From the IMG/VR virus record IMGVR_UViG_3300028591_000125: DNA of 47,977 nucleotides. One strand, 5' to 3'. Within the stretch, counting starts at the first letter, position 1. The number at the start of each line of letters is the position of its first letter. The translations under genes and the position numbers were made by a program. Below are positions 553 to 47,977 of this stretch, in pieces. The notes under the pieces are model-generated. The model had not been told where the DNA came from and ran no database searches. It saw only the letters and a program-made list of their open reading frames with translations. Origin of the DNA: a virus. Taxonomy: Duplodnaviria; Heunggongvirae; Uroviricota; Caudoviricetes.

Positions 553-999
553 ATGACTGATAAAGTAGTAAAAATATTAAACAAATCAAACAATCCTAAT
601 CCTGAATACGCTCATGAAACTGATTCAGGTGTGGATATTAGAGCGTTCCTTGATAAACCTCTTGTGCTAGAACCTGGGGAAAGATATGCTGTTCCAACAG
701 GAATTTATGTAGAATTGCCTGAGAATTTTGAAATTCAAGTTCGTCCTAGATCCGGCTTAGCACTAAAGAAAGGAATTACTGTACTTAATTCTCCGGGTAC
801 TATAGATCAAACTTATAGAGGAGAAATTAAAGTTATTCTGATCAATCTCGATAAGAATAGACAAATTATAGAACCTGGTGAAAGAATAGCTCAACTCGTT
901 TTTGCTACTGTAGAAAAGATTAAATTTGAAAATGTTGATGAAATCTCTGAAGATACTGATAGAGGTACTACAGGATTTGGAGATTCAGGAAGATTTTAA
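553..999 (+). CDS. dut: Trimeric dUTP diphosphatase
   Basis: All five dUTPase motifs are present: SGVDI, RPRSG, GTIDQTYRGEI, RIAQL, RGTTGFGDSG. Confidence 0.97.
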   Translation: MTDKVVKILNKSNNPNPEYAHETDSGVDIRAFLDKPLVLEPGERYAVPTGIYVELPENFEIQVRPRSGLALKKGITVLNSPGTIDQTYRGEIKVILINLDKNRQIIEPGERIAQLVFATVEKIKFENVDEISEDTDRGTTGFGDSGRF

Positions 1000-1007
1000 A
1001 TTAAAAT

Positions 1008-1364
1008 ATGGAAACAAAAGAATCGTATATTAGTGTAATTAATTCGTCTGATGAAGTTTGGGAAGGATCTTTAAAAGCTATCTCTGAGGATGGTGAACTT
1101 CTTCTCGCTTATAAAAATACAAACGTTGATTTAGAAATTACTGATAAAGAAATTTTGTATCAGGTTATAGTTAAGAGACTCTATAATGAGGATAGTAAAA
1201 GAAGATATACAATTTTCCTTACTACTTCGGAAAAATCTTATGTTCTTAGTAGAGTCCCCATCGATTATGTGAAAAATGAATTAATTACTGATCTTGAAAA
1301 TCTTGAGGTTAGTGAGAAAATATTAGCAAATTTTTGTCAAATAGTTAAGGATATAGAAGAATGA
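1008..1364 (+). CDS. Acidic hypothetical protein, translationally coupled to the actin-like ATPase
   Basis: 118-aa ORF with an ATGA overlap with the next gene; no recognised motif. Confidence 0.75.
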   Translation: METKESYISVINSSDEVWEGSLKAISEDGELLLAYKNTNVDLEITDKEILYQVIVKRLYNEDSKRRYTIFLTTSEKSYVLSRVPIDYVKNELITDLENLEVSEKILANFCQIVKDIEE

Positions 1365-2365
1365 GATTATTAGCTATAGATTTAGGTTACTCTAGCGTTA
1401 AGGTGGCTTATTATAACGACGCTGGAGCTTTACAATTAGAAAAATTTATTAGTGCAGTTGCGAAAATAGATGATCCTATGGAAATCGACGATGATATTAT
1501 GTTTAAATTAGGCGTCGATACTTATGTCCTCGGTGAAAGCGCTCTTAAAGTATCTAGATCATCATTACTCCCTTTGGAAACTTTTGATGATATGAAAGCA
1601 GCTTACCCCGTCTGGATTTCTTATTTACTTAAACGTTATGGAGGCTCTGATAGTTTCGATAAGGTTGTGATTGGTCTTTCTCTGGCTTTCTCTAATAGAA
1701 CAGATGAACTACTAGAACACCTTTATCAAACTCTTATGATACCTATAGAAACTGATTACTTTATGTGTCTTCCTCAAGGTCTCTCCTGTAAACTCGCCTA
1801 TTCAAATTACGGCCTTAATATACGGTCAGAATCTCATAGCTCAACCAAATTAATGAACTATATTGTGGTTGATGGAGGATTTTTGACCGTTGATATGTGT
1901 GCCGTAGTTGCTTCAGGCAGTTCTTCAGGGAGCGCTATAGGAATTCCAAACACAGGAGTAATTAATATAGCTTATGACGTTGTAGATTACCTGTTTAGAG
2001 AATATCAGTTTAAGGTTTCTGTAAAAGAAGCTCAACAAATTATAGACTCAAACGGAATTTTTACAAGAAGAGCTAGAAAATACGATATCTCAGGCCCTCT
2101 TAAAGACTTCACTAAAAAATATCTTAGTAATGTCTTAGGTCTACTCGAAGAAAAATACTCTGAATTTCTTGATGTTATTGATGGTGTTGTTATTCTTGGT
2201 GGCTTGGCTTATATATTCCAACGCTACCTTGATGACCCTGATGTAGTAGCTGAAATAGAAAAACACTTCGACGTCTCATTCCTATCTTTCCCTCCTGACC
2301 TTAGCGAATATTATAACAGCTATTCATATTTAAAGGCAGCTGAGAAACTTTTAAATAATAACTAA
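1361..2365 (+). CDS. Actin-like ATPase (ParM/StbA/Alp type)
   Basis: Phosphate-1 LLAIDLGYSSVKV, phosphate-2 IVVDGGFLTVD and adenosine VVILGGLAY motifs; 334 aa. Confidence 0.85.
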   Translation: MRLLAIDLGYSSVKVAYYNDAGALQLEKFISAVAKIDDPMEIDDDIMFKLGVDTYVLGESALKVSRSSLLPLETFDDMKAAYPVWISYLLKRYGGSDSFDKVVIGLSLAFSNRTDELLEHLYQTLMIPIETDYFMCLPQGLSCKLAYSNYGLNIRSESHSSTKLMNYIVVDGGFLTVDMCAVVASGSSSGSAIGIPNTGVINIAYDVVDYLFREYQFKVSVKEAQQIIDSNGIFTRRARKYDISGPLKDFTKKYLSNVLGLLEEKYSEFLDVIDGVVILGGLAYIFQRYLDDPDVVAEIEKHFDVSFLSFPPDLSEYYNSYSYLKAAEKLLNNN

Positions 2366-2369
2366 AGAT

Positions 2370-3065
2370 ATGAGTGAATTTTATGGACAAGCTTGGATCT
2401 CTGGAGATAGCTTGGTTCAGGAAATAATTACTTTCAATAGTTCTACTAGAGATACTACAACTACAACTAAAGTAATTGTGGCTAATATTTGGGACTGTCT
2501 GTTGGATGCAGGTCAGGAAGAAAATAGTATTCCATCTTCAACAACTCCAGCTACCGATGATTATCCCGATCCTGAACATAATAAATACTATGTCGTTTTC
2601 TCCGACGGTCTAAGTAAACAAAAGCCGTTCTTCTTCTGGAAAGTAAAACAAACACCTATAGAAGAAGGAGCTAGCCCTATTTGGATTACTTTTGCATGCC
2701 CTGAACCAAAACCAGGACTATTTATCCCTCCTTATGATCTTGAGACTGAATATACTGAATATCAAGATGAATCGGGAAAAACTTATAACAGCACCTATCC
2801 TTATCCTAATTACTGGATTAAAAAACTAAAAGCCGCTTCTGATAATTACCAAAACTCAAGTATAATTCAAAGAGGTACCGTAGTTTTTGATGGATGCAGT
2901 TATATTGGTCCTAGAACTCCTGGAACAAACACCACAGATCCAGAAACAGGTATTATTACTACAGATGATCCAAATATTTATTCCGATCCTAATGCAAAAG
3001 TGGATCCCTATACTTTTGAAAATGATGACTTGGGAGATATTACTAACCTCCTAAGACTGTTTTAA
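2370..3065 (+). CDS. Hypothetical protein, Pro/Thr/Asp-rich
   Basis: 231-aa ORF starting 4 nt after the ATPase stop and followed by a terminator. Confidence 0.75.
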   Translation: MSEFYGQAWISGDSLVQEIITFNSSTRDTTTTTKVIVANIWDCLLDAGQEENSIPSSTTPATDDYPDPEHNKYYVVFSDGLSKQKPFFFWKVKQTPIEEGASPIWITFACPEPKPGLFIPPYDLETEYTEYQDESGKTYNSTYPYPNYWIKKLKAASDNYQNSSIIQRGTVVFDGCSYIGPRTPGTNTTDPETGIITTDDPNIYSDPNAKVDPYTFENDDLGDITNLLRLF

Positions 3066-3071
3066 AATAAT

Positions 3072-3102
3072 CCTCCTGGTTTTTACTGGGAGGTTTTATT
3101 TT
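3072..3102 (+). terminator. Intrinsic terminator
   Basis: Stem cctcctgg/ctgggagg followed by ttttatttt. Confidence 0.75.
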
Positions 3103-3112
3103 CCTTATATAT
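3103..3112 (+). promoter_or_regulatory. CCTTATATAT motif, putative phage promoter element
   Basis: Lies 2 nt before the ATG at 3115; the motif recurs at 8 other unit-start positions. Confidence 0.6.
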
Positions 3113-3114
3113 AT

Positions 3115-3504
3115 ATGAACTTAGAAGAAAAATTAAAGAAATTACCAGGAAGCATAGAATATAAGATTACTAACTATGCTAATAATGAATTTGATGCTGA
3201 AAACGATGGAATTTGGTCCTTTAATATGGGGGAGTATTTTCTAGATATTACAAAAAATAAGAATAATCAGTTTGTTGTATCTTATAATTACTACAATCCA
3301 TATGAAGGTGGTATTGAAACATCTTTACCAGCTAAACCAGATGATGTAATTAAAGAAGATGTAGAATCAGATTTTGGACCCACTAACTTTTGGGCCATAT
3401 CTAATTCTTATGTATTTGATCAAGACTTAGCTACAGGAGATACACTAGAAGAAGCTGTTGATAAAGTTCTTAATTGGCTTAATAAAAATGGACTTATCGA
3501 TTAA
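3115..3504 (+). CDS. Acidic hypothetical protein
   Basis: 129-aa ORF preceded by the CCTTATATAT motif. Confidence 0.75.
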   Translation: MNLEEKLKKLPGSIEYKITNYANNEFDAENDGIWSFNMGEYFLDITKNKNNQFVVSYNYYNPYEGGIETSLPAKPDDVIKEDVESDFGPTNFWAISNSYVFDQDLATGDTLEEAVDKVLNWLNKNGLID

Positions 3505-3523
3505 AAAAAATAGATAGATTGGA

Positions 3524-3817
3524 TTACTCCTTTCTATCTTTTATTTCGTATTTGTATAATAACTCAACACTAGTAGTCATATATATACTACTAAGATGTC
3601 TGTATAAAAAATCATCCCAATCTGTAATTTCTCCTTTTAAGTTAAGACTTCTCTTTACACTACAAATTTCATATACATAATAAGAGCCCTTTAATATATT
3701 CTTAGAGAGCTTCTTTTTTATTAAAACAATTGGATGTCGATGATATAATACTCTAAATTCTTCTAGGATAGCTAAAACACTAATCTCTTTATTTATCCTA
3801 TATAAATATACTACCAT
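3524..3817 (-). CDS. Small basic paralogue-family protein (KKLSK motif)
   Basis: IVLIKKKLSKNIL; preceded by the motif variant CCTTATTAAT. Confidence 0.7.
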   Translation of the reverse strand: MVVYLYRINKEISVLAILEEFRVLYHRHPIVLIKKKLSKNILKGSYYVYEICSVKRSLNLKGEITDWDDFLYRHLSSIYMTTSVELLYKYEIKDRKE

Positions 3818-3820
3818 ACT

Positions 3821-3850
3821 ATTAATAAGGCCTTGAAACCCTTATATATG
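3821..3850. promoter_or_regulatory. Divergent pair of CCTTAT(A/T)(T/A)AT motifs
   Basis: attaataagg (3821-3830, minus orientation) and ccttatatatg (3840-3850, plus orientation). Confidence 0.55.
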
Positions 3851-3888
3851 AAGTTAACTTACTTCATGAGTTCAATATTGATTTTGTT

Positions 3889-3922
3889 AAAAGGAGTATC
3901 ATAATTGTGCTCCTTTTATTTT
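3889..3922 (+). terminator. Intrinsic terminator
   Basis: aaaaggag...ctcctttt stem followed by a T-rich tail. Confidence 0.65.
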
Positions 3923-3932
3923 CCTCTCAATT

Positions 3933-3943
3933 CCTTATATATG
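3933..3943 (+). promoter_or_regulatory. CCTTATATAT motif
   Basis: ttccttatatatg immediately after the 3889 terminator. Confidence 0.55.
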
Positions 3944-3978
3944 TTAGATCTTCATTTATTTAGTTTTGTGAAGGATTA

Positions 3979-4007
3979 GGTGCCTCTTGTAGGTGCCTTT
4001 TCTTTTT
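3979..4007 (+). terminator. Intrinsic terminator
   Basis: ggtgcct-cttgt-aggtgcc stem (two G-U pairs) followed by ttttcttttt. Confidence 0.6.
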
Positions 4008-4027
4008 GCAAAATAAAAAAGAAGATA

Positions 4028-4330
4028 TTAAATCTTCTCTAACCCTATAACCTCTATATTAAAACTAGCAGTTTTAAGATAACCTAAACCTATAAAATGA
4101 CTCAATGTATTTTTTACAATTATATCTTCTGTATTCTTATAGGACTTATTAAGATATTTTGCAGTCTCTTGCCCTAAAACAAAACTACAACAAGGTATCG
4201 TGTTTATAATCTTTTTACTTATTTTTTTATGCCTTAACTTAAAAACTTTCACCCTCCATTTTATAAGATTAAAACAGATTAAAAAACAACACTTATTTAT
4301 ACTATCCTTTACTAGATATCTAAACTTCAT
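4028..4330 (-). CDS. Small basic paralogue-family protein
   Basis: LRHKKISKKII motif; C-terminus IEVIGLEKI; overlaps the upstream gene. Confidence 0.75.
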   Translation of the reverse strand: MKFRYLVKDSINKCCFLICFNLIKWRVKVFKLRHKKISKKIINTIPCCSFVLGQETAKYLNKSYKNTEDIIVKNTLSHFIGLGYLKTASFNIEVIGLEKI

Positions 4331-4646
4331 GAAAACTGAGAATTTCTATATTAGGGTTAGGGTTATTATCGTAGTAAGTATTCTCAAGTATATCTATATA
4401 ATAACATATCATATTTTTTAGATTCAAAGGATTATCGCTGTAACCGTGCCTTGTCTTTAAAAGAAAAGAATTAAAATAATCGGACGACCTATACTGTACA
4501 AATATTCGTTTAATAACCCTATCACTTATTTTTTTATGATGCTTTAATTTAATAACCTTTACAATCCGAGACACAAAATAAAATTCAATTACATAACAAG
4601 ATCTATACCTAAAATTCCTAACTAAATACCTAATACTTTTCTTCAA
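4320..4646 (-). CDS. Small basic paralogue-family protein
   Basis: LKHHKKISDRVI motif; C-terminus IEILSFHEV. Confidence 0.75.
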   Translation of the reverse strand: MKKSIRYLVRNFRYRSCYVIEFYFVSRIVKVIKLKHHKKISDRVIKRIFVQYRSSDYFNSFLLKTRHGYSDNPLNLKNMICYYIDILENTYYDNNPNPNIEILSFHEV

Positions 4647-4947
4647 TTTTTAAGATCTCTACTTCAGAATGTGGTAAATTATACATCGGCCGTAACTCTA
4701 TAAGATCTATATAATACCGTAACGCCTCCCCTAACTTACTATGACTACAATATCTAGGAAGCGTAAGATATTTATGTCGGGATTCAAGTATAAATATAGG
4801 ACGAATAGAATAGTTCCTGATAAAATTAATACTTACCTTCTTGTGTATTAGTTTCACCGTCTTTATATATTTACTACTCTCATCTATATAAATCGCATAA
4901 AACCTAAAACCTTCTCTGACTATATATAACCACTCTCTCATAAACAT
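4630..4947 (-). CDS. Small basic paralogue-family protein, first gene of the leftward array
   Basis: LIHKKVSINFI motif. The CCTTATATATG motif (4945-4955, minus) overlaps the annotated start, so the true start may be the ATG at 4941. Confidence 0.75.
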   Translation of the reverse strand: MFMREWLYIVREGFRFYAIYIDESSKYIKTVKLIHKKVSINFIRNYSIRPIFILESRHKYLTLPRYCSHSKLGEALRYYIDLIELRPMYNLPHSEVEILKIEEKY

Positions 4948-5007
4948 ATATAAGGAAATTAAAAAAACACTTAGGAGCTTCCCAGAGTAATAGATGCTTT
5001 GTAGATA

Positions 5008-5370
5008 TAAGACTAGAAACGGATTTTAAATAAATATGGACCGAGTGAAACGAGGGACATTTTTAGGTAAATTGAAAGGAAGTCTTAGAAAGTGAGTGGA
5101 ATTCTGTGAGCGAAGCGAATAGAATGAAGCGAACCTCAAAGCAGAAAAAAGAGTGAAATGTAGTGAAGACGGAATGAAATGAAGTCGAAACGAAATGGAA
5201 CGTTGAGGTTTTCTGAGCAAAGCGAAGTAAAACCGAATAGAATGGGAATAGAAATGAAGTGCAGTGAAGTCGTAACGAAGTGAAGACGAAACGGAACGAA
5301 ATGATAAAATGAACTGAAAGAAATGAAGTGAAGACGTAATGAAATGAAGTCGAATTGAATGAAACGATAA
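5008..5370 (+). repeat. Purine-rich degenerate pentamer (YGAAR-like) region; copy A of a long imperfect inverted repeat
   Basis: taagactagaaacggattttaaa...gaaatgaagtcgaa aligns with the reverse complement of 47623-47977; units such as GAAAT, GAAGT and GAAAC recur with ~5-nt spacing. Confidence 0.9.
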
Positions 5371-5400
5371 TTAAAGAGAAAGAAAAAGGAGAGTAGTTTA

Positions 5401-5484
5401 GGGCGGGAAATTTTAAACCGAGAGAATTAGGCTTTACATCATCATCCCCCAAGCCTTAAGAATAGGTTTAATATATTTCCGCCC
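5401..5484. other. Extended imperfect palindrome (hairpin or cruciform)
   Basis: Nested arms gggcgg(g)aaat/atttccgccc, ttaaacc/ggtttaa and aggctt/aagcct. Confidence 0.55.
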
Positions 5485-5494
5485 ATTCTCTAAG

Positions 5495-5505
5495 CCTAAT
5501 ATATG
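5495..5505 (+). promoter_or_regulatory. CCTAATATAT variant of the promoter motif
   Basis: 3 nt upstream of the ATG at 5508, the first gene of the rightward array. Confidence 0.55.
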
Positions 5506-5507
5506 AG

Positions 5508-5759
5508 ATGGTTTATTTGATTTATTTTAGGAGTGGATTAATATTGTGTCAGTATTCTAGGGGGTTGTGGATAGAATTACGGCCGGCTAGGAGAATAAGA
5601 ATTTACAAGAAACTAGGGAAAAGAATGATAGAGAAGATGGCCGATGTGAAATTATATCCGTCTCAATTAAACGAGGAGAAGATTTTAGGTACATTAGTGA
5701 CGTGTTGTGGGTATAAGAGAGAAGATATAATAAGAGTTTTAGGAGTTCAATTAAGATGA
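5508..5759 (+). CDS. Small basic paralogue-family protein
   Basis: RIYKKLGKRMI motif; ATGA-coupled to the next gene. Confidence 0.75.
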   Translation: MVYLIYFRSGLILCQYSRGLWIELRPARRIRIYKKLGKRMIEKMADVKLYPSQLNEEKILGTLVTCCGYKREDIIRVLGVQLR

Positions 5760-6007
5760 AAATATACCTGATTTATGCCAGAAATAGATTAGAGATAGTC
5801 ATAGTTATAGACAAGGAAAAGAATATAATTAAGGATTTCTCTTTTTACACTAAGATCCGGAAGAAGATTAGTAGAAATTTTATAATGAAGGTATCTAAGA
5901 ATTTTAAAACATATACCACAGAAACGATAATAACGGCCGAGAGTATTAAGGAGTTGTTATGGGGGTGTGGAGTTAAGGCTAAGACATTTCGTATAATAGA
6001 GTTATGA
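5756..6007 (+). CDS. Small basic paralogue-family protein
   Basis: KIRKKISRNFI motif. Confidence 0.75.
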   Translation: MKIYLIYARNRLEIVIVIDKEKNIIKDFSFYTKIRKKISRNFIMKVSKNFKTYTTETIITAESIKELLWGCGVKAKTFRIIEL

Positions 6008-6285
6008 GAGTTATTATTGTTCATGCCATAATACTGACTACTGAGGAGAGGCAGATTAGGTGTATTTGGAGTAATAATGCAGGTTTGGGTTATTATTTAT
6101 CTCCATTACTTAGAAAAAAATTAACTAGGAAATATGTAAAGGCTGAGCTTTCTTCTTATATTAAGAAAAAGAGCTGGGGATGTGATTTAAAAATAGACTC
6201 AGAGCTTTACGAAAAAATAAAAAGGGATATGTATGGTTTGTATAGATCAGTGAGTATAACTTCAGTTTACGAATTAGAGTTATGA
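6004..6285 (+). CDS. Small basic paralogue-family protein
   Basis: LLRKKLTRKYV motif. Confidence 0.75.
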   Translation: MRVIIVHAIILTTEERQIRCIWSNNAGLGYYLSPLLRKKLTRKYVKAELSSYIKKKSWGCDLKIDSELYEKIKRDMYGLYRSVSITSVYELEL

Positions 6286-6569
6286 GAGTTATTATTATTC
6301 ACATACTTTGTTCAGATGGGAAAGTAAGAGTTTACTTTATGTATCGTTTTTCAGGTTCTAGCAGTAGTAGTAGTATATATTGTTATAATACATTACCGAC
6401 TATACGAAAAAGAATAACCAAGAAAATAATGAGGAATTTTATTATAGTTAATGAGAAGTATAATGTAGATCTTGAAATAGGTGAGAAGCTTTATAAGAAT
6501 GTTTTCGATTCATTTTTAGGAGACTATAAAGCGGAGAGGATTTTTTATATATATGACTTAGTTTTATGA
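6282..6569 (+). CDS. Small basic paralogue-family protein
   Basis: TIRKRITKKIM motif; N-terminus MRVIIIH is nearly identical to that of the previous gene. Confidence 0.75.
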   Translation: MRVIIIHILCSDGKVRVYFMYRFSGSSSSSSIYCYNTLPTIRKRITKKIMRNFIIVNEKYNVDLEIGEKLYKNVFDSFLGDYKAERIFYIYDLVL

Positions 6570-6844
6570 GGAGGGTTGTAATTATAAAGGTCCAAGTTAT
6601 TAATACCTTCTTTACTCTTTGTATTTTTGGGGACTTACAGACGAAACAATATTTATGTTCGATGAATAGTATAAGTAACAATATTTACAAAAGACTGGGA
6701 AAGAGAAGTATAATATCTCGTATAGAAAAAGTAAATAAATATAATAAAGAGTTAGAAAAAATTAATTGTAAAAATAGTATAAAAGAGATAAAAAACTTTC
6801 TTAGTGGATATAAAATACTAAACATATATGAACAATATATCTAA
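6566..6844 (+). CDS. Small basic paralogue-family protein
   Basis: NIYKRLGKRSI motif. Confidence 0.75.
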   Translation: MRRVVIIKVQVINTFFTLCIFGDLQTKQYLCSMNSISNNIYKRLGKRSIISRIEKVNKYNKELEKINCKNSIKEIKNFLSGYKILNIYEQYI

Positions 6845-7129
6845 AAAAGTAAGAGTAGTTATTGTTTTTGCTGAAAAAGAGAGTGCTTATATTGTTATAT
6901 GTATTTATGGTGAAGTGAGGGAATATTATTATGCTTTGTTTTCACGTTTTAATAAATTCATAATACATAAAAAACCAGGAAGAAGGAGTATAAAAAATTA
7001 TTACTGAAAAAAGTTAGTCCAGAAAACTTACAGCACGCTAATTGTCCAAATAGTCTTGAATATATAAAATACTTTTTCAAGAGGAAGAAGGAGATGAATA
7101 TATTAAGGATTTATGAAAAAGAAGTATAA
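6828..7129 (+). pseudogene. Frameshifted paralogue-family gene missed by the ORF track
   Basis: ATG at 6828 reads MNNISKKVRVVIVF...IIHKKPGRRSIKNYY to TGA at 7005-7007. The -1 frame from the A6 run near 6992-6997 continues KKLLLKKVSPENLQHANCPNSLEYIKYFFKRKKEMNILRIYEKEV to TAA at 7127-7129, which matches the C-terminus of 6566..6844. Confidence 0.7.
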
Positions 7130-7448
7130 GTTTTTCATAATATATACGGGTAGAGAAGTAATAAAGTTCTCGATAAATAGAAGCACTGAGTATTCTGGGT
7201 TTGTTATCATAAGTGGGGCTGCTGTAACTAGGGAAGTTTATGTTAAACCAAGGAAGAAAGTAAATGTATTTTGTTTATTAAAACAAGGACTACTAGGTGA
7301 CTATGGTTCATTAGACATTTTACTTCATGCATTATACCGTGTCGAGTATAATGATATTCCGGAGATAACAAGAGAAGAAGCTTTAGAAAAATTTAAGAGT
7401 CTATATTTAAAGAGAGAAGCTTATTATATATATGGACGTAATAAATGA
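7113..7448 (+). CDS. Small basic protein, probable paralogue-family member
   Basis: VKPRKKVNVF motif variant; overlaps its neighbours. Confidence 0.7.
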   Translation: MKKKYKFFIIYTGREVIKFSINRSTEYSGFVIISGAAVTREVYVKPRKKVNVFCLLKQGLLGDYGSLDILLHALYRVEYNDIPEITREEALEKFKSLYLKREAYYIYGRNK

Positions 7449-7672
7449 TAGAGTTTTATATAGTTGAAAATTTTTATGGTTTTAGATTAATTGCAAACGA
7501 TAATACTAAGAAGAAAACTTTATTATATCTTGAGATTAAAAACAAAAATAAAAAGTTTTCAAGGTATATGCTAAATAAGCTTTTAATGGAATCAGATGGG
7601 TGTTGTGACCTTGCTTATATGAGACCAGGATTTATGAATAAAATAAGAACTTGGAAAATAAAAAGGAGATAA
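7445..7672 (+). CDS. Small basic paralogue-family protein
   Basis: KNKKFSRYML motif. Confidence 0.7.
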   Translation: MIEFYIVENFYGFRLIANDNTKKKTLLYLEIKNKNKKFSRYMLNKLLMESDGCCDLAYMRPGFMNKIRTWKIKRR

Positions 7673-7687
7673 AACTCCTTTATTTTT
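7661..7687. terminator. Bidirectional intrinsic terminator
   Basis: aaaaggag-ataaaa-ctccttta with a T tract, between convergent genes. Confidence 0.65.
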
Positions 7688-7983
7688 TATTCATCTAATA
7701 TTTCTATAGAATAAATCAGTTCTTGATCGCTATTAAAAAACTCTAATGCTCCGAAATTGCTATTAACGGTAAGTAATATAGCTTTAGAATCTCCAGCCAC
7801 AGTAAAAGATATGTCACCAGGATCATAACGTACATCAAGTGTGGGAGGATAATCAAACATAATTCCCTCTTCAAAACACCAGAATATTTTTAATCCATAT
7901 TTATCAAGAAACTTATCAATCTCATCTAAATTAACTTTACTAGGATCTATAAAAATATCCCTACAAATCTTTTTAGTAAGCAT
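7687..7983 (-). CDS. Acidic hypothetical protein
   Basis: 98 aa; CCTTATATAT lies 3 nt upstream on the minus strand. Confidence 0.75.
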   Translation of the reverse strand: MLTKKICRDIFIDPSKVNLDEIDKFLDKYGLKIFWCFEEGIMFDYPPTLDVRYDPGDISFTVAGDSKAILLTVNSNFGALEFFNSDQELIYSIEILDE

Positions 7984-7985
7984 AA

Positions 7986-8021
7986 CATATATAAGGATTA
8001 CAACTAGAGACCTTATATATA
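7986..8021. promoter_or_regulatory. Divergent pair of CCTTATATAT motifs
   Basis: catatataagg (7986-7996) and ccttatatata (8011-8021), each just ahead of an ATG. Confidence 0.65.
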
Positions 8022-8022
8022 G

Positions 8023-8235
8023 ATGATAGAAGTTAGGAAATATTGGTCATGGAGTAGAGCTTATTTAATATCTGTGTTTTATGAGGATGGTGAAATACGA
8101 ACTTGTTACTGGGACTCACATAAAAAGATAAGTAAGAAGTTTGCCAAGTCTCTTTTAAATATAGATAAAAATAAAAATATATCTATAGTAACATTAGGAA
8201 ATTTTAGAAACGTAATATTCAAGTATAAAATATAA
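8023..8235 (+). CDS. Small basic paralogue-family protein (stand-alone unit)
   Basis: DSHKKISKKFA motif; has its own upstream motif and downstream terminator. Confidence 0.7.
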   Translation: MIEVRKYWSWSRAYLISVFYEDGEIRTCYWDSHKKISKKFAKSLLNIDKNKNISIVTLGNFRNVIFKYKI

Positions 8236-8268
8236 AAGGGAAGTAAATTAATACTCCCCTTATTTTTT
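8235..8268. terminator. Bidirectional intrinsic terminator
   Basis: aaggg(a)agta...tactcccctt flanked by A and T tracts, between convergent genes. Confidence 0.6.
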
Positions 8269-8713
8269 ATAACATCACAAACAAAAATGAAATTCTAGTC
8301 TGATCTGCAAATATAAAAGTAAGTCTGTGTGTTTTATCCATCTTAAAAACGAAGTCAAGTTCAGTTTCTGGAGCCTGTTCAATTTCATCAAGTATAATAG
8401 TTTGAAGAAAATTAGGTTCCACGGCTTTAGAATCACCACTAAACTCTATTTCATCTTCAGGGTTAAATAGTACTTCTTCACCATCATATTCTTCTCCGTT
8501 TAAAAGTATAGAAACATTTAAATACTTTGCTACTTCAGGATCAATTGTGGGATCTTGACTGGTTATAACAGGATCACCAAAAACTAGAGCATAATCATCT
8601 TGGTTACATGAATACTTAGTTTTTTGTGAAGCTTGATACTGAGCACTCCCTGGATAAGATTCATAGAGATCAGTATTATAAGCCTCATTGTTGTAAAAAA
8701 TTATATCTTCCAT
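8267..8713 (-). CDS. Acidic hypothetical protein, similar to the C-terminus of 9683..10465
   Basis: MDKTHRLTFIFADQTRISFLF resembles TNRDHRISIMWEPGKVVESFLF. Confidence 0.7.
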   Translation of the reverse strand: MEDIIFYNNEAYNTDLYESYPGSAQYQASQKTKYSCNQDDYALVFGDPVITSQDPTIDPEVAKYLNVSILLNGEEYDGEEVLFNPEDEIEFSGDSKAVEPNFLQTIILDEIEQAPETELDFVFKMDKTHRLTFIFADQTRISFLFVML

Positions 8714-8717
8714 AACA

Positions 8718-9614
8718 TTATTTATCAGTTATATATTCTGGATGATCTGCTACCCAGTTAGTAGGACAATTTACTCTTCGTCTGAAATATGCAGTACCTA
8801 GATTATGGAAATAACCATCTTCTGCAACATTATCTAACCAAGAATCTAAACATCCCTTAGCAGAGTTATCATTAGCATAAATAGTAATCTCATTTAATAA
8901 AGTACAACCCTGAAACATATATTCATAACATTGACCAACTAAAGTAGTAGCGGGTAATTGTGGTGCTTCAGTTAATGCTGTACAAGCAGAGAACATAGCT
9001 TGATAACAATCATTAGCTAATGTAGTTGCCGGTAATTGAGGAGCTTCTGTTAATGATGTACAACCAGCAAACATAAAGGAATAACATTCTTCAGTTAGTG
9101 TAGTAGCAGGTAATATTAAATCCTTTGCAGAAACTAAGGAAGGTGCATCTTCGAATAAGTGACCGAAAGTATACTCGCTTCCTTCCGGAAAACTGGTCTT
9201 ATCTTCAAAGTTATCACTATATAACAATGACATAATATTACCACCTACATTAAAGTCTTTATTAGAATTGATAGTCCAGTAATTCCAAGAAGTCTGTACT
9301 GCACGTAAGTATGTTTTATCGGTTACTTCAAAACTATACGTATCATTATCTAATTCTAATGGTACCCATGTTTCACCGTCCTCTGATATTTCTATACTAG
9401 TAAAAGCCGCACCTGAACTTTTATTATTTGTGATTGTAAATGTTGCTGACTCGTTACTAATATTCTCTATGTAGAAATAGGTATGCTTATCTACTGGAGG
9501 TTCTGGATTACTATATTCTTCCGGTCCTATTTGAGTAGATCCCGATTTATTAGAATTCCTTACTAAATTTCCATTATAGGGCAGTAAATCAAAGTAATTT
9601 TCTATATTTTTCAT
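8718..9614 (-). CDS. Leucine-rich repeat protein (LPATTL repeats, BspA-like Bacteroidota type)
   Basis: Three 24-aa repeats of LPATTLxxxCYxxMFxxCTxLxEAPQ. Confidence 0.8.
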   Translation of the reverse strand: MKNIENYFDLLPYNGNLVRNSNKSGSTQIGPEEYSNPEPPVDKHTYFYIENISNESATFTITNNKSSGAAFTSIEISEDGETWVPLELDNDTYSFEVTDKTYLRAVQTSWNYWTINSNKDFNVGGNIMSLLYSDNFEDKTSFPEGSEYTFGHLFEDAPSLVSAKDLILPATTLTEECYSFMFAGCTSLTEAPQLPATTLANDCYQAMFSACTALTEAPQLPATTLVGQCYEYMFQGCTLLNEITIYANDNSAKGCLDSWLDNVAEDGYFHNLGTAYFRRRVNCPTNWVADHPEYITDK

Positions 9615-43783: not shown

Positions 43784-44809
43784 CTATATTATTTTCTTTT
43801 CTAGTATTTCATATCCTTTATCTCTTTTTCCAGTATCTATATTTCTTATATCAACAGTTTTAATAGTGAAATATTCTCCTAAGTCTACTGCTTTGGGTGT
43901 TTTCTTATAACCTACCTTTTCATATAGGGCTTTTAATCTCTTTTTGGCTAAGTTTTTTGATACTCTTTCGCCAATCTTAAACTCATTTTGTATCTCTTTT
44001 CCTATATCTATTCCTTGATTCCCTATTATCCCTTCATATTCTTTCTTCATATCAGTGGAATTAAAACTAAGGGCTTTCATTTTTTCTGGTCCTAAAACAG
44101 TACAGAAATTAATAAAGTAGGAAGGAAGATACATTAGACTGGCTTTTATAGTATCTAAGCCTAAGGAACAAAGACTTTCATATCTTTCTTTAAGTTTTTG
44201 TTTACTTAATATTTCTTTAGTCGCTTCTAATATATTATCTTCTATACTAAAATCAATTATTAACCCATACTCTTTTTCAATATACTCTTCTAGGTTTTTG
44301 TTATAGTTATTATATAGAGACTTTGAAATAGATTTAAATAACTCATCGTCTATAATTTCAAATTTCCCTAGTGTTTTTAAATGATTTTTGGATATTATTT
44401 TATTGGTTAAGTAGTTTACCTTTATACTAACCTCTATATTTGATTTTAATTTACCAATCTCCCTTATTTCTCTTCTAGAATAATACGGTTTAACTATTAT
44501 TTCTTGTAATGACTCTTTTGTTTTATGTGTTTCAAAAAAGTCTAATATTCTCTGATCATACTTAAACCACTCTTTTCCAAAACCTACTTCTCTTAGGTCT
44601 TTGAAATAGATATGTAAGTTTCTCTCATCTATTAGATCTCCACCCTCAATTAAATATAATACTTTTGATGATGGGTTTTCTGTAATGTAACAATCAAATC
44701 TACTTTTTCTAGATTCCTCTCCTGTATATCCAATCTTTAAAATTGATTTATATCCTTTACTTATATCGTCTTTATCTACAAAACTTGGACTTAATATTAA
44801 ATATATCAT
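43784..44809 (-). CDS. GIY-YIG superfamily (T5orf172/MUG113-like) nuclease with a C-terminal domain shared with the adjacent helicase
   Basis: IYLI...LKIGYT...R...TENP...ERNLH..F...GKEWF motifs. Confidence 0.75.
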   Translation of the reverse strand: MIYLILSPSFVDKDDISKGYKSILKIGYTGEESRKSRFDCYITENPSSKVLYLIEGGDLIDERNLHIYFKDLREVGFGKEWFKYDQRILDFFETHKTKESLQEIIVKPYYSRREIREIGKLKSNIEVSIKVNYLTNKIISKNHLKTLGKFEIIDDELFKSISKSLYNNYNKNLEEYIEKEYGLIIDFSIEDNILEATKEILSKQKLKERYESLCSLGLDTIKASLMYLPSYFINFCTVLGPEKMKALSFNSTDMKKEYEGIIGNQGIDIGKEIQNEFKIGERVSKNLAKKRLKALYEKVGYKKTPKAVDLGEYFTIKTVDIRNIDTGKRDKGYEILEKKII

Positions 44810-44814
44810 ACGTA

Positions 44815-46836
44815 TTATTCTTTTTTAGATACAATTAAATAACCTGCATCTCGTTTCCCGGTTTCTTCATTATTTATTCTACATGTATTTAATATAAAAT
44901 AATCACTTAAATCGACAGCTTTTGGAGTCTTTTTATATCCAACCTCAGAATATAATGTTCCTAATTTATTCTTTATATATGTTTTTGTATATTTTTCTCC
45001 AATTCTAAACGATTCATATATTTTTGATCCTATATCTATATTCTGATTACCTATTATTCCTTCGTACTCCTTTCTCATATCTGTTGCATTAAATCCTAGT
45101 GCTTTCATTCTTGTGGGACCTAGAACAACATAATAATTAGTGAAAGATTCTGGTAATTGAGGTAGGCATAATTTAACTGTTTCTGGATCAAGTGAGCAAA
45201 GATATCTATACCTATCTGATAGCTTCTGAATACCGTAAATAGTATCTAAGACAGCATTAACATCAAAAACCTCATGTCCGGCTTCAGCTAGGGAATTGAA
45301 TACAGAAAATCTATCTTTATAATCGGTTTGCTGGATTTCAAAAGCTCTCATCTCGGCTATCATCACAAGCTTATTAAAGATAGGAACTAAGTCGGATCCG
45401 GCATGCTCATCTACAGCTACAAAATTTCCTTTGTATTTTTCCATATGAGCTATTTTTTGATATGCTTCAGCTAAATTGTGCTTATCTGAACTATCTACTG
45501 TATTATATGCATTTAATAAACTTTCCGTCTTTTTCTTTTTTATTTCTAAGTAATTATTAAAATCTTCTTCTGATAATTCCTTAGTATTAAGCTTATAGTA
45601 AAGTTCTGCTCTGTTCTTCCAGGGGTTTTCATTTAATCTCTGTCGGCCGAGTATCTGTGGTAGGTCTAGAGTAATATCCACAGAAAGACAGTCAATATTA
45701 GCATCAGAGAATATAAAAGATCTGGCACTTGTAGAGTAAAAGTCAGCCCCCAAATAAACGGTTCTGGTACATAGAGTGAACATCTTATGAGTCTCTCCTT
45801 GTTTCGGAACTTTACCTATATATTTTTGAGACCTTGGAAGCGTCTTGTCTACCGTTCTGAATGCATCTCTTATCTTCTTTTCATTCCTTTCATCATCAGA
45901 ACACAAGATATTCACTTCCTCGGGCTTTAATTCACACTTCTTTATTATCTCTGTTATGTTTTTTATCGAGTTGACATAAATAACGGCTTCTTTACTGTAA
46001 ACTATCTCAAATAATCCATCATCTCCTTTTCTCGTAATCTTCTCAAAATCTCCAGACCTATATTCCTCTACTATTCTCCTAACCTCTTCTACAATTCCTC
46101 TTGTACATAATTTGGTCTTGAGGTAGGGAGTAACAACACGACTTGGATCTTCTGTAGACCAATCAAGTTCATAATAAGGTAGATCTTTAAATTCGTCTAG
46201 TTCTTCAAGATATTTGTCCATCATAGGAGTGGCAGAAAGATAAACTACATTCTTGACTTTCTGAAGATTATTTAAGAAGGTGTTTTCGGTGTCTGACTTG
46301 AATCGTGCATCTGTAAACATCGACTGGAATTCATCCACCACAACAGTAAACGTATCTAGAATAGTTTCCCCTAAGGCTTCTCTAATTCGCCTAAAAGAAT
46401 CATAAGTTACTAGATATTTACACGGAAGTCCTTTAATAGCACACATTGTTCTATGATGTATTATCTTTTGTCTGACTTCCTCTGAATATAACTTGGATTT
46501 CGTTATCTCTTCTTCTGTTTCTACCTTCGTTTTTACTAAGGATTTATCATCTTTTGAAATATCTTTATCAAAAGGTTGAAAAGTTGAATATTCATCTCTA
46601 AGGTAAAGGACATTCTCCTCCGATGAATGTTGATCTGATTTGTTTTCTAGGAGTACCTTTCTTGGGGAACAAATTATAACAGGTTTATCATTAGTAATAC
46701 AGTATTCAGTATATCCACAACCAGTTATAGTCTTGTTCATAATATAATGAATTCCTTCTGGTAATTGATCTTCAAGTTCTTTCCATTCACTAATGAATCT
46801 AATTCCTTTTGGTACAATAATAACTTCTTTTTTCAT
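44815..46836 (-). CDS. Superfamily 2 helicase-like protein with a degenerate Walker A motif
   Basis: Motif I TGCGYT, II VVDEFQ, III LSATP, IV AVIYVNS, V TRTVYLGADF, VI QILGRQR. Confidence 0.8.
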   Translation of the reverse strand: MKKEVIIVPKGIRFISEWKELEDQLPEGIHYIMNKTITGCGYTEYCITNDKPVIICSPRKVLLENKSDQHSSEENVLYLRDEYSTFQPFDKDISKDDKSLVKTKVETEEEITKSKLYSEEVRQKIIHHRTMCAIKGLPCKYLVTYDSFRRIREALGETILDTFTVVVDEFQSMFTDARFKSDTENTFLNNLQKVKNVVYLSATPMMDKYLEELDEFKDLPYYELDWSTEDPSRVVTPYLKTKLCTRGIVEEVRRIVEEYRSGDFEKITRKGDDGLFEIVYSKEAVIYVNSIKNITEIIKKCELKPEEVNILCSDDERNEKKIRDAFRTVDKTLPRSQKYIGKVPKQGETHKMFTLCTRTVYLGADFYSTSARSFIFSDANIDCLSVDITLDLPQILGRQRLNENPWKNRAELYYKLNTKELSEEDFNNYLEIKKKKTESLLNAYNTVDSSDKHNLAEAYQKIAHMEKYKGNFVAVDEHAGSDLVPIFNKLVMIAEMRAFEIQQTDYKDRFSVFNSLAEAGHEVFDVNAVLDTIYGIQKLSDRYRYLCSLDPETVKLCLPQLPESFTNYYVVLGPTRMKALGFNATDMRKEYEGIIGNQNIDIGSKIYESFRIGEKYTKTYIKNKLGTLYSEVGYKKTPKAVDLSDYFILNTCRINNEETGKRDAGYLIVSKKE

Positions 46837-46919
46837 AATCCACTTCTTTTTAAAAATTAATCAGCTTTAATGCTGAATCCACTTAAAACAAAGGAGAAAA
46901 TGCATAGCATTTCCTCTCA

Positions 46920-46930
46920 CATATATAAGG
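46920..46930 (-). promoter_or_regulatory. CCTTATATAT motif upstream of the helicase gene
   Basis: catatataagg, about 85 nt upstream of the helicase ATG. Confidence 0.55.
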
Positions 46931-47164: not shown

Positions 47165-47977
47165 AAAACCCCTCACTTCGCTCCGTTTCACTCCGCTTCG
47201 TTCGGCAAAATAGAATAAAAGATGAATAGAAAGATAAGAGGTAAATATAATAAATCGCTCCACTTCGTTCCGCTCCGTTTAAATTAATTCTTTTTCTTTT
47301 TTTATTTAAATGCGACCGAGCCGAAGGCGAGGGAGTTCTTTTCTTTTATCACTTCATTCGCTTGCGCTCATTTCGTTCTTTCTTTATTTAAAACCACCTC
47401 ATTCGCTTCGCTCATTTCGTTTAAATCCTTCGCTCGCTTTGCTCGCTCCGTTATTATATATTATCTTTCTATTCTTCATCTTTAGTTATCGTTTCATTCA
47501 ATTCATCCTTCACTTCACTGCGTTTCGTTCAGTCTTCTTTCATTACACTTCAGATCTCGTTACGTTTTCATTCCGCTTCGCTACATTTCAAACTCCACTT
47601 CAATCACTTCAATTCATTCCGTTTCGACTTCATTTCATTCCGTCTTCACTACATTTCTTTCAGTACCTTTATCATTTCGTTCCGTTTCGTCTTCACTTCG
47701 TTACGACTTCACTACACTTCATTTCTATTCCCATTCTATTCGGTTTTACTTCGCTTTGCTCAGAAAACCTCAACGTTACGCTTTCATTCCATTACGTTTC
47801 GCTTACGCTACACTTCATTTCATTCAGCTTCACTTCTATTCTTTGCTTTGAGGTTCGTTTCATTCTATTCGCTTCGCTCACAGAATTCCACTCACTTTCT
47901 AAGACTTCCTTTCAATTTTCTAAAAATGTCCCTCGTTTCACTCGGTCCATATAATTTAAAATCCGTTTCTAGTCTTA
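47165..47977 (-). repeat. Pyrimidine-rich (+ strand) degenerate pentamer region containing inverted-repeat copy B
   Basis: Units cttca, tttcg and ttcgc recur with ~5-nt spacing; 47623-47977 is the reverse-complement counterpart of 5008-5354; the window ends inside the repeat. Confidence 0.9.

Follow-up and report, generated by a model that had tools for sequence, protein, structure and literature searches.

In four rudiviruses, homologues of AcrID1 are duplicated and clustered, with identities between copies falling to approximately 7%, and the copies have in common a virus-specific promoter sequence ahead of them (PMC11065993). SPO1's module for host takeover provides a second precedent, consisting of 26 small genes distributed over several operons (PMC6873191). 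Here we describe a locus of related appearance on a 47,977-nt stretch of phage DNA (IMG/VR record IMGVR_UViG_3300028591_000125, Caudoviricetes), which we refer to as the window; it is the 3′ 48 kb of the 111,977-base contig of an uncultivated phage, and has a G+C content of approximately 31%. Positions 3524–8235 of the window carry 13 small, basic, highly diverged paralogues (p1 to p13), arranged in two divergent runs around a repeat-filled intergenic region. Large phages are already known to carry accessory-gene families of this kind, with clustered and diverged copies; the family and its copy number are new.

The resemblance to the AcrID1 clusters (Rudiviridae, SIRV1/2/3) lies in a small viral family that is multiply duplicated in one genome, clustered, and extremely diverged, and here too a shared promoter-like sequence precedes several of the genes. 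The resemblance to the SPO1 module lies in a block of a few kilobases of small phage genes, which are divided among several short operons with strong promoters of the phage type and sited beside other modules. The present family differs from both in being known from sequence alone: the AcrID1 copies, encoded at the genome ends of archaeal viruses, include a demonstrated anti-CRISPR and are proven to be expressed early, and for SPO1 both the timing of expression and several targets are known. We found no sequence or fold relation to AcrID1, and in contrast to the AcrID1 genes, which stand singly, the genes described here encode strongly basic proteins and are mostly co-transcribed in coupled operons. 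They also comprise 13 genes with one architecture and one motif; we know of no report that the SPO1 module genes form one family. A third point of comparison is provided by the T4-type promoter-early stem-loop (PeSL) regions, in which terminator–promoter modules punctuate a plastic region of small open reading frames (ORFs), and two gene-less cassettes at 3840–3998 of the window fit that pattern. Unlike PeSL regions, however, this locus has only about five promoters for 14 genes, most copies are joined by ATGA overlaps instead of terminator–promoter modules, and the array is syntenic in related phages, so that its cassettes are evidently not being shuffled.

The 13 paralogous ORFs encode proteins of 59–111 amino acids and occupy 3524–4947 on the minus strand and 5508–8235 on the plus strand; all 13 are present at the coordinates given in the initial annotation. 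The minus-strand run comprises p1 (3524–3817, 97 amino acids), p2 (4028–4330), p3 (4320–4646, with a TTG start), and p4 (4630–4947, with its real start probably the ATG at 4941); the plus-strand run comprises p5 (5508–5759), p6 (5756–6007), p7 (6004–6285), p8 (6282–6569), p9 (6566–6844), p10 (6828–7007, cut off at 59 amino acids), p11 (7113–7448), p12 (7445–7672), and p13 (8023–8235, 70 amino acids). Each protein carries one copy of a short basic motif, the variants of which had been read correctly throughout: KKKLSKN (p1), HKKISKK, HKKISDR, HKKVSIN, YKKLGKR, RKKISRN, RKKLTRK, RKRITKK, YKRLGKR, HKKPGRR, RKKVNVF, NKKFSRY, and HKKISKK (p13). In 11 of the 13, a single instance of the pattern K[KR][ILVF][STG] is present, at residues 34–43, and the looser pattern K[KR]h[STGN] fits all 13, again once each, at residues 34–48. 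Setting aside the hydrophobic core, this Lys-[Lys/Arg]-h-[Ser/Thr/Gly/Asn] signature is the sole polar feature common to all copies.

Such a motif might in principle arise from the lysine- and isoleucine-rich composition of AT-rich DNA, the possibility that the initial annotation had named as the one that would undo its reading. In 5000 composition-preserving shuffles, however, the motif fell within the observed residue range in a mean of 0.29 and a maximum of 3 of the 13 members, and its background rate in the other proteins of the window is 0.44 per 1000 amino acids. The family is basic (isoelectric points of 9.3–10.0 and net charges of +5 to +13), with Lys and Arg making up 18.9% of residues; the window's remaining proteins, at 8.8%, are acidic (Asp and Glu 14.0%). 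Because the motif lies beyond the shuffles and the remaining window proteins are acidic, an artefact of Lys-rich AT bias is excluded, and the profile ranks and six-frame profile scan described below lead to the same rejection.

Pairwise similarity firmly links two groups of neighbouring genes, p2–p3–p4 (BLASTP 4e-8 for p2–p3 and 3e-10 for p3–p4), which share the sub-family motif HKK[IV]S, and p7–p8–p9–p10 (2e-8 for p7–p8, 1e-3 for p8–p9, and 5e-6 for p9–p10). The most similar copies are thus neighbours, and identity among paralogues is about 15–30% (p7 and p8, for example, are 27% identical as proteins). Since pairwise links between clusters are weak, the status of the 13 as a single family depends on aggregate tests. 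Copies outside the two groups are tied in only by low-scoring profile ranks, the position of the motif, and a common architecture, and p11 is the weakest of them. Leave-one-out profiles placed the omitted member at rank 1 for eight of the 13 and at ranks 2–4 for three more, among 690 sequences comprising six-frame ORFs and shuffles; p1 ranked 3–4 in these tests. When the training set excluded the whole cluster of the tested member but included orthologues, the top 8 of 886 sequences was still reached by 8 of 12 members. A profile built from all members but p10, run against the 299 six-frame ORFs of the window, raised only two further ORFs above noise, and these were the two halves of p10 on which it had not been trained.

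Several results pull in the opposite direction. Comparisons between sub-clusters by hhalign gave probabilities of at most 13%, so that the pairwise links are individually not significant and similar in range to those of the acidic control protein p14; seeded HMMER iterations from single members recovered only p2–p4 and p7–p8 and did not cross between clusters; and p11, p3, p7, and p9 rank poorly once their own cluster is withheld. The best decoy in one leave-cluster-out test was p14 itself, at 14.9 bits, a score that we suspect reflects its C-terminal ‘IYSIEIL’ strand. The hidden Markov model check suggested at the outset was borne out for most members and failed for p11, which no sequence profile recovered (ranks 435 and 250); p11 is tied in only by its RKKVN at the right position, its length, its order of elements in the alignment, and its place in the operon, and is a probable member of the family. 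These shortfalls could be taken to mean that the ORFs are unrelated or even non-coding, with a shared motif produced by composition. We consider this extremely improbable, and in effect already refuted, given that every protein has the motif a single time and at a fixed position, that shuffled sequences gave no more than 3 of 13, that the other window proteins are acidic, that orthologues are conserved as proteins and accommodate in-frame insertions and deletions, that the aggregate profile ranks are far from chance, and that the members have length and order of secondary-structure elements in common. We are accordingly highly confident that the 13 paralogues constitute one real gene family.

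The age of the copies can be judged from related phages. When 1.84 billion representative proteins were searched by profile, ten matches had E ≤ 0.001, all of them the phage’s own proteins or their orthologues, and further orthologues were found by word-based searches; these searches brought up no additional protein encoded on the 111,977-base contig; outside this phage lineage, no relative was found among those 1.84 billion proteins. In total, fragments of related phages carry 1:1 orthologues of 11 of the 13 paralogues, at 63–84% identity and with gene order preserved, and for p6 and p10 the profile and word-based protein searches have so far found none. The orthologue of p1 is P0027 (63% identity), those of the p4–p3–p2 operon are P0009 (73%), P0006 (66%), and P0028 (79%), those of p13 are P0013 (82%) and P0021 (71%), and in the right-hand run orthologues were found for p5, p7, p8, p9, p11, and p12. 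They lie on related contigs of 7318 nt (p1–p5; P0006, P0009, P0024, P0027, and P0028), 1041 nt (p7, p8, and p9; P0002, P0022, and P0025), 1621 nt (p7 and p8; P0011 and P0019), 2901 nt (p11, p12, and p13; P0021, P0026, and P0029), and 2928 nt (P0013), and the three distinct orthologues of p7 imply at least three relatives. Differences between orthologues, in-frame insertions and deletions included, cluster in the middle loops, whereas the motif and the strands at the two termini are conserved. From this pattern it follows that these are real genes subject to constraint, and that the divergence of the paralogues long predates the split of these phages.

The proposal that the arrays behave as a gene accordion does not survive this comparison: with 11 of 13 copies matched one to one at 63–84% identity and in the same order, against approximately 15–30% among the paralogues, the copy set is, on the sequence record, old and fixed rather than expanding and contracting. 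As to its origin, the greatest similarity between neighbours and a 27-nt junction repeat point to local tandem duplication as the likely source of the copies. The repeat (TAGAGTTATGAGAGTTATTATT.TTCA) lies at the p6/p7 (5997–6023) and p7/p8 (6275–6301) junctions and is 96% identical between them while the genes on either side are highly diverged; it may act as a signal for coupling or reinitiation, or alternatively be a site of recombination or gene conversion. Other routes to relatives were unproductive: blastn against 50,697 phage records gave no match, nor did scans of IMG/VR with the ParM-like protein of the window, a 298-amino-acid neighbour, the p4 pair, and two DNA patterns, and the match from a single metagenome scan (L001) proved spurious, being an alternative frame in a cellular contig.

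One member of the set stands apart in its reading frame: 12 copies are intact, and p10 is frameshifted. Its ORF ends shortly past the motif, and the missing half is found in the -1 frame at 6971–7126 (‘...NCPNSLEYIKYF...ILRIYEKEV’), where it aligns with the C-terminus of p9. The two frames meet at A AAA AAT (6992–6998), whose register is that of a classical -1 slippery heptamer. The split could represent a pseudogene, a homopolymer or other sequencing error, or programmed -1 frameshifting. An AAGGAG sequence lies just upstream of the heptamer, at 6983–6988.

For p4, an AlphaFold2 model built on an 18-sequence alignment is of good quality (predicted local distance difference test score, pLDDT, 86.4; predicted template-modelling score, pTM, 0.80) and has the element order βββ-α-β-αα-β, with predicted strands at residues 5–12, 15–22, and 27–33, a helix at 40–45, a strand at 51–53, helices at 56–62 and 69–84, and a strand at 96–104. 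The motif residues Lys36, Lys/Arg37, and Ser39 fall in the predicted loop that caps the first helix, at the strand-to-helix junction. The model of p8 is of low confidence (pLDDT 56) and too poor for fold searches, with the same element order.

The p4 model found little company among known structures. Foldseek against the PDB gave a best E of 0.38, to sheets of the major histocompatibility complex (MHC) platform and Mago-like proteins; the best E in BFVD was 0.05; and in the ESM Atlas, searched with p4 and p7, there was no usable match (best feature score 0.75, with template-modelling (TM) scores of approximately 0.5 or lower except for very short alignments). VIA-align against 48,161 PDB cluster representatives reached a best Z of 4.0, with none at or above 5; 7–8 is usual even for models that lack a clear match, and values below 4 are in the noise range. 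The predicted p4 fold is therefore unusually isolated and a candidate for a new fold. Sequence searches agree: in Pfam (hmmscan, all 13 members) no family was matched by more than one member, the best E being 0.003 and the hits scattered over unrelated families; in PHROGs the best E was 0.017, all to different families; PDB sequences searched by profile gave a best E of 0.08; and PADLOC, which holds defence rather than anti-defence proteins, gave no match. The initial description of one unrecognized family with a fixed basic patch in very divergent surroundings thus holds across Pfam, PHROGs, PADLOC, and PDB sequences and folds.

Among the weak fold matches, one theme recurs, albeit within the noise range: ToxR (7nmb_A, Z 3.5 with 74 residues aligned at a root-mean-square deviation (rmsd) of 3.5; 8b4b_W, Z 3.4), TcpP (9gdr_H, Z 3.2), and CadC (5ju7_A, Z 3.1). 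Like the OmpR/ToxR-type winged helix, the p4 model spans approximately 100 amino acids and runs from an N-terminal sheet through a helix, a short strand, and two helices to a C-terminal strand. Unlike that family, the matches reach Z values of only 3.1–3.5 with rmsd of 3.3–4.9 Å over 68–74 aligned residues, the conserved motif does not sit at the position of the recognition helix, and PF00486 (Trans_reg_C) matched none of the 13 members at E values up to 5. We treat the likeness, which comes from a predicted model, as a lead only and not as membership. Two further candidates were set aside. A ribbon-helix-helix (RHH) adaptor of the ParR, Arc, or CopG kind, in which a single N-terminal strand leads straight into two helices, is at odds with the predicted three-strand meander before the first helix in p4 and p8, and there was no RHH match in Pfam. 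A degenerate GIY-YIG nuclease was considered by eye, since a basic helix comes after N-terminal strands of the form ‘hYhIY ... DG ... Y’; here again there was no Pfam match, the alignment has no conserved Gly/Arg/Glu/Asn set, and the nuclease would require β-β-α-β-α, which the predicted βββ-α-β-αα-β does not fit.

The genes are tightly packed. In the left-hand run, p4 and p3 overlap by 17 nt and p3 and p2 by 11 nt, forming a p4–p3–p2 operon with p1 as a transcription unit of its own; in the right-hand run from p5, its first gene, to p12, five junctions are ATGA overlaps and the remaining ones overlap by 14–17 nt. The translational coupling read from the sequence at the start is thus confirmed by five ATGA overlaps and four overlaps of 11–17 nt. 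A candidate promoter motif, CCTTATATAT, or a variant of it with one or two mismatches, sits 2–4 nt before the start codons of p1, p4, p5, p13, and p14. It is exact at p4 (4946–4955, minus strand), where it lies 4 nt before the conserved ATG: the p4 orthologue P0009 starts at M3 of p4, so that the real start of p4 follows the motif by 4 nt. It is also exact at p13 (8011–8020, plus strand) and at p14 (7987–7996, minus strand), whose promoters lie back to back, 14 nt apart. The variants are CCTTATTAAT ahead of p1 (3821–3830, minus strand) and CCTAATATAT ahead of p5 (5495–5504, plus strand, 3 nt before its ATG). The initial annotation had all runs headed by CCTTATATAT, which is accurate for the p4 operon and p13, and also for the unrelated p14, whereas p1 and p5 have only variants with one or two mismatches.

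The same motif recurs at 46921–46930 on the minus strand, at the head of a long run of structural and tail genes. The assignment of the paralogues to an early region had been assumed, and with the same promoter motif heading a structural operon, early timing is not supported. At the head of that structural run (46838–46930, minus strand), a leader of approximately 85 nt separates CCTTATATAT from the start codon and contains a possible hairpin (AGGAAATGC...GCATTTTCT). A bidirectional hairpin terminator at 7662–7681 closes both the p5–p12 operon and the convergent p14, and a terminator hairpin comes after p13 (8236–8261, plus strand). Each of the two gene-less cassettes consists of CCTTATATAT with a terminator after it; they occupy 3840–3918 and 3933–3998 of the plus strand, between the minus-strand genes p1 and p2; frames starting at their motifs run for 18 and 12 codons only. 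Rfam gave no match within 3000–8800.

Both runs diverge from an ORF-free gap of 540 nt (4956–5494), as originally described. Degenerate YGAAR pentamers and 16-nt repeats fill approximately 5030–5400 of this gap, and the segment 5008–5363 is an inverted copy of 47613–47977 (minus strand), with 86.8% identity over 378 alignment columns (approximately 360 bp) and the two copies 42 kb apart. The purine-rich strand of each copy runs towards a downstream promoter motif, at 5495 on the plus strand and at 46930 on the minus strand, and the inverted repeat brackets the right-arm genes p5–p13 together with the whole tail module. The repeat module may serve as a common upstream control element or as an origin-like module. 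The end of the contig falls inside the second copy, and the inverted repeat probably explains the assembly break there. An imperfect palindrome at approximately 5400–5502, with arms of approximately 30 nt (GGGCGGGAAAT...ATTTCCGCCC), lies immediately upstream of and overlaps the variant promoter of p5; it may be an operator or a terminator.

Around the arrays, a dUTPase gene (553–999, plus strand) and a gene for an actin-like ATPase of the ALP/ParM type (1361–2365, plus strand) lie upstream, the latter approximately 3 kb away, and a minus-strand tail and fibre module follows from 8.2 to 47 kb, containing CBM5/12 and Lcl_C-type domains and a tail protein. The nearest relatives of that tail protein belong to crAss-like and other Bacteroidota phages, at 35–40% identity, from which the host is probably a member of the Bacteroidota. 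Within the region of the arrays, p14 (7687–7983, minus strand) encodes 98 amino acids, is acidic (isoelectric point 4.2, net charge -10), lacks the KK motif, has no Pfam match, and is not a family member. A direct DNA repeat (43787–44099 and 44813–45127; 70% identity over 318 nt) shows that the 3′ (C-terminal) ends of the adjacent minus-strand genes for 341- and 673-amino-acid proteins are paralogous.

As to function, the explanation we favour, though with somewhat less than even confidence, is that the paralogues are diversified binders of nucleic acids or of phosphate-bearing ligands, each with its own surface. We are led to it by the conservation of the Lys-Lys-x-Ser cap, the strong positive charge, and the position of the genes beside a DNA repeat array; a lysine pair followed by a helix-capping serine is a common phosphate-holding arrangement. 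The gene family itself, of which we are far more confident, is restricted to this lineage; its 13 genes, each encoding a small basic protein of predicted alpha/beta structure, probably stem from ancient local tandem duplications on both sides of the repeat-filled intergenic region, and purifying selection has probably kept each copy since. In the favoured mechanism, the cap would form a phosphate-binding site, the proteins would bind DNA, RNA, or a nucleotide-like ligand, and the diverged surfaces would direct the paralogues to separate targets, with three coupled transcription units (p1; p4–p3–p2; p5 to p12) plus p13 supplying the proteins at fixed ratios. Several considerations count against it: Gly or Asn replaces the Ser/Thr in four members, the structural argument draws on 18 sequences and one confident prediction, profile links between the sub-clusters are weak, no known nucleic-acid-binding domain is similar by sequence or fold (the best PDB match having a Z of 4.0), and 13 specificities could as easily be explained by 13 different protein targets. 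The main rival is the view of the family as host-takeover or anti-defence effectors, in which each paralogue would bind a different host protein and the basic patch would be structural or a shared docking feature. We regard this as unlikely on balance while still deserving serious consideration: the proteins are small, lineage-restricted, and very divergent, they are encoded in a plastic region with its own compact promoters and two empty promoter–terminator cassettes, and the AcrID1 clusters (PMC11065993) and the SPO1 host-takeover module (PMC6873191) are precedents. The copies are, however, stable and fairly conserved between related phages (63–84%), which is not the turnover of an arms race; early timing is unsupported, given the promoter motif on the structural operon; and PADLOC gave no match, though its contents are defence proteins. 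Acidic DNA mimics account for many of the well-known anti-defence proteins, whereas this family is strongly basic.

Three further explanations seem to us much less probable. As a special case of nucleic-acid binding, the proteins could be regulators or adaptors that read the adjacent nGAAn pentamer arrays, either as centromere or origin adaptors for the nearby ParM/ALP ATPase or with the arrays as operators for the promoters downstream. In its favour, the array is the point from which the two runs diverge, the promoter of the structural operon has the second, inverted copy upstream of it, the ALP/ParM-like gene is 3 kb away, and the weak recurring fold matches (Z 3.1–3.5) are to ToxR, TcpP, and CadC, members of a family that binds direct repeats. 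Nevertheless, one adaptor would be enough and 13 superfluous, the predicted N-terminal three-strand meander is not a ribbon-helix-helix, Z values below 4 are within noise, and neither Trans_reg_C nor a ParR-type family was matched in Pfam; we think this reading improbable. Hardly better placed is the idea of virion-packaged internal or DNA-condensing proteins, with a role like that of the T4 internal proteins and made stoichiometrically with the structural genes. Basic charge, small size, translational coupling, adjacency to the tail and structural module, and the shared promoter motif are all compatible with it, but the proteins show no evident targeting sequence of the cleavable kind, core beta-strand is predicted for the conserved N-terminus, and we know of no internal proteins that come as 13 paralogues. 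A more ambitious version of the binding explanation, which we would put forward only as a long shot, is that a new nucleic-acid-binding fold is involved and that the paralogues assemble at fixed ratios on the nGAAn arrays of the 360-bp inverted pair, forming a nucleoprotein complex that would control replication, segregation (with the actin-like ATPase), transcription of both flanking operon sets, or inversion of the intervening segment.

Large Bacteroidota phages of the gut and rumen are full of unannotated small genes, and the family described here does not yet bear on any long-standing question. It does offer a compact target for study, in that it combines one conserved three-residue patch, 13 natural variants, a candidate DNA ligand next door, and a candidate new fold. 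The phage spends approximately 4 kb, or roughly 4% of its 112-kb contig, on 13 maintained copies of one protein design, and a commitment of that size and stability implies that its function calls for many specificities simultaneously.

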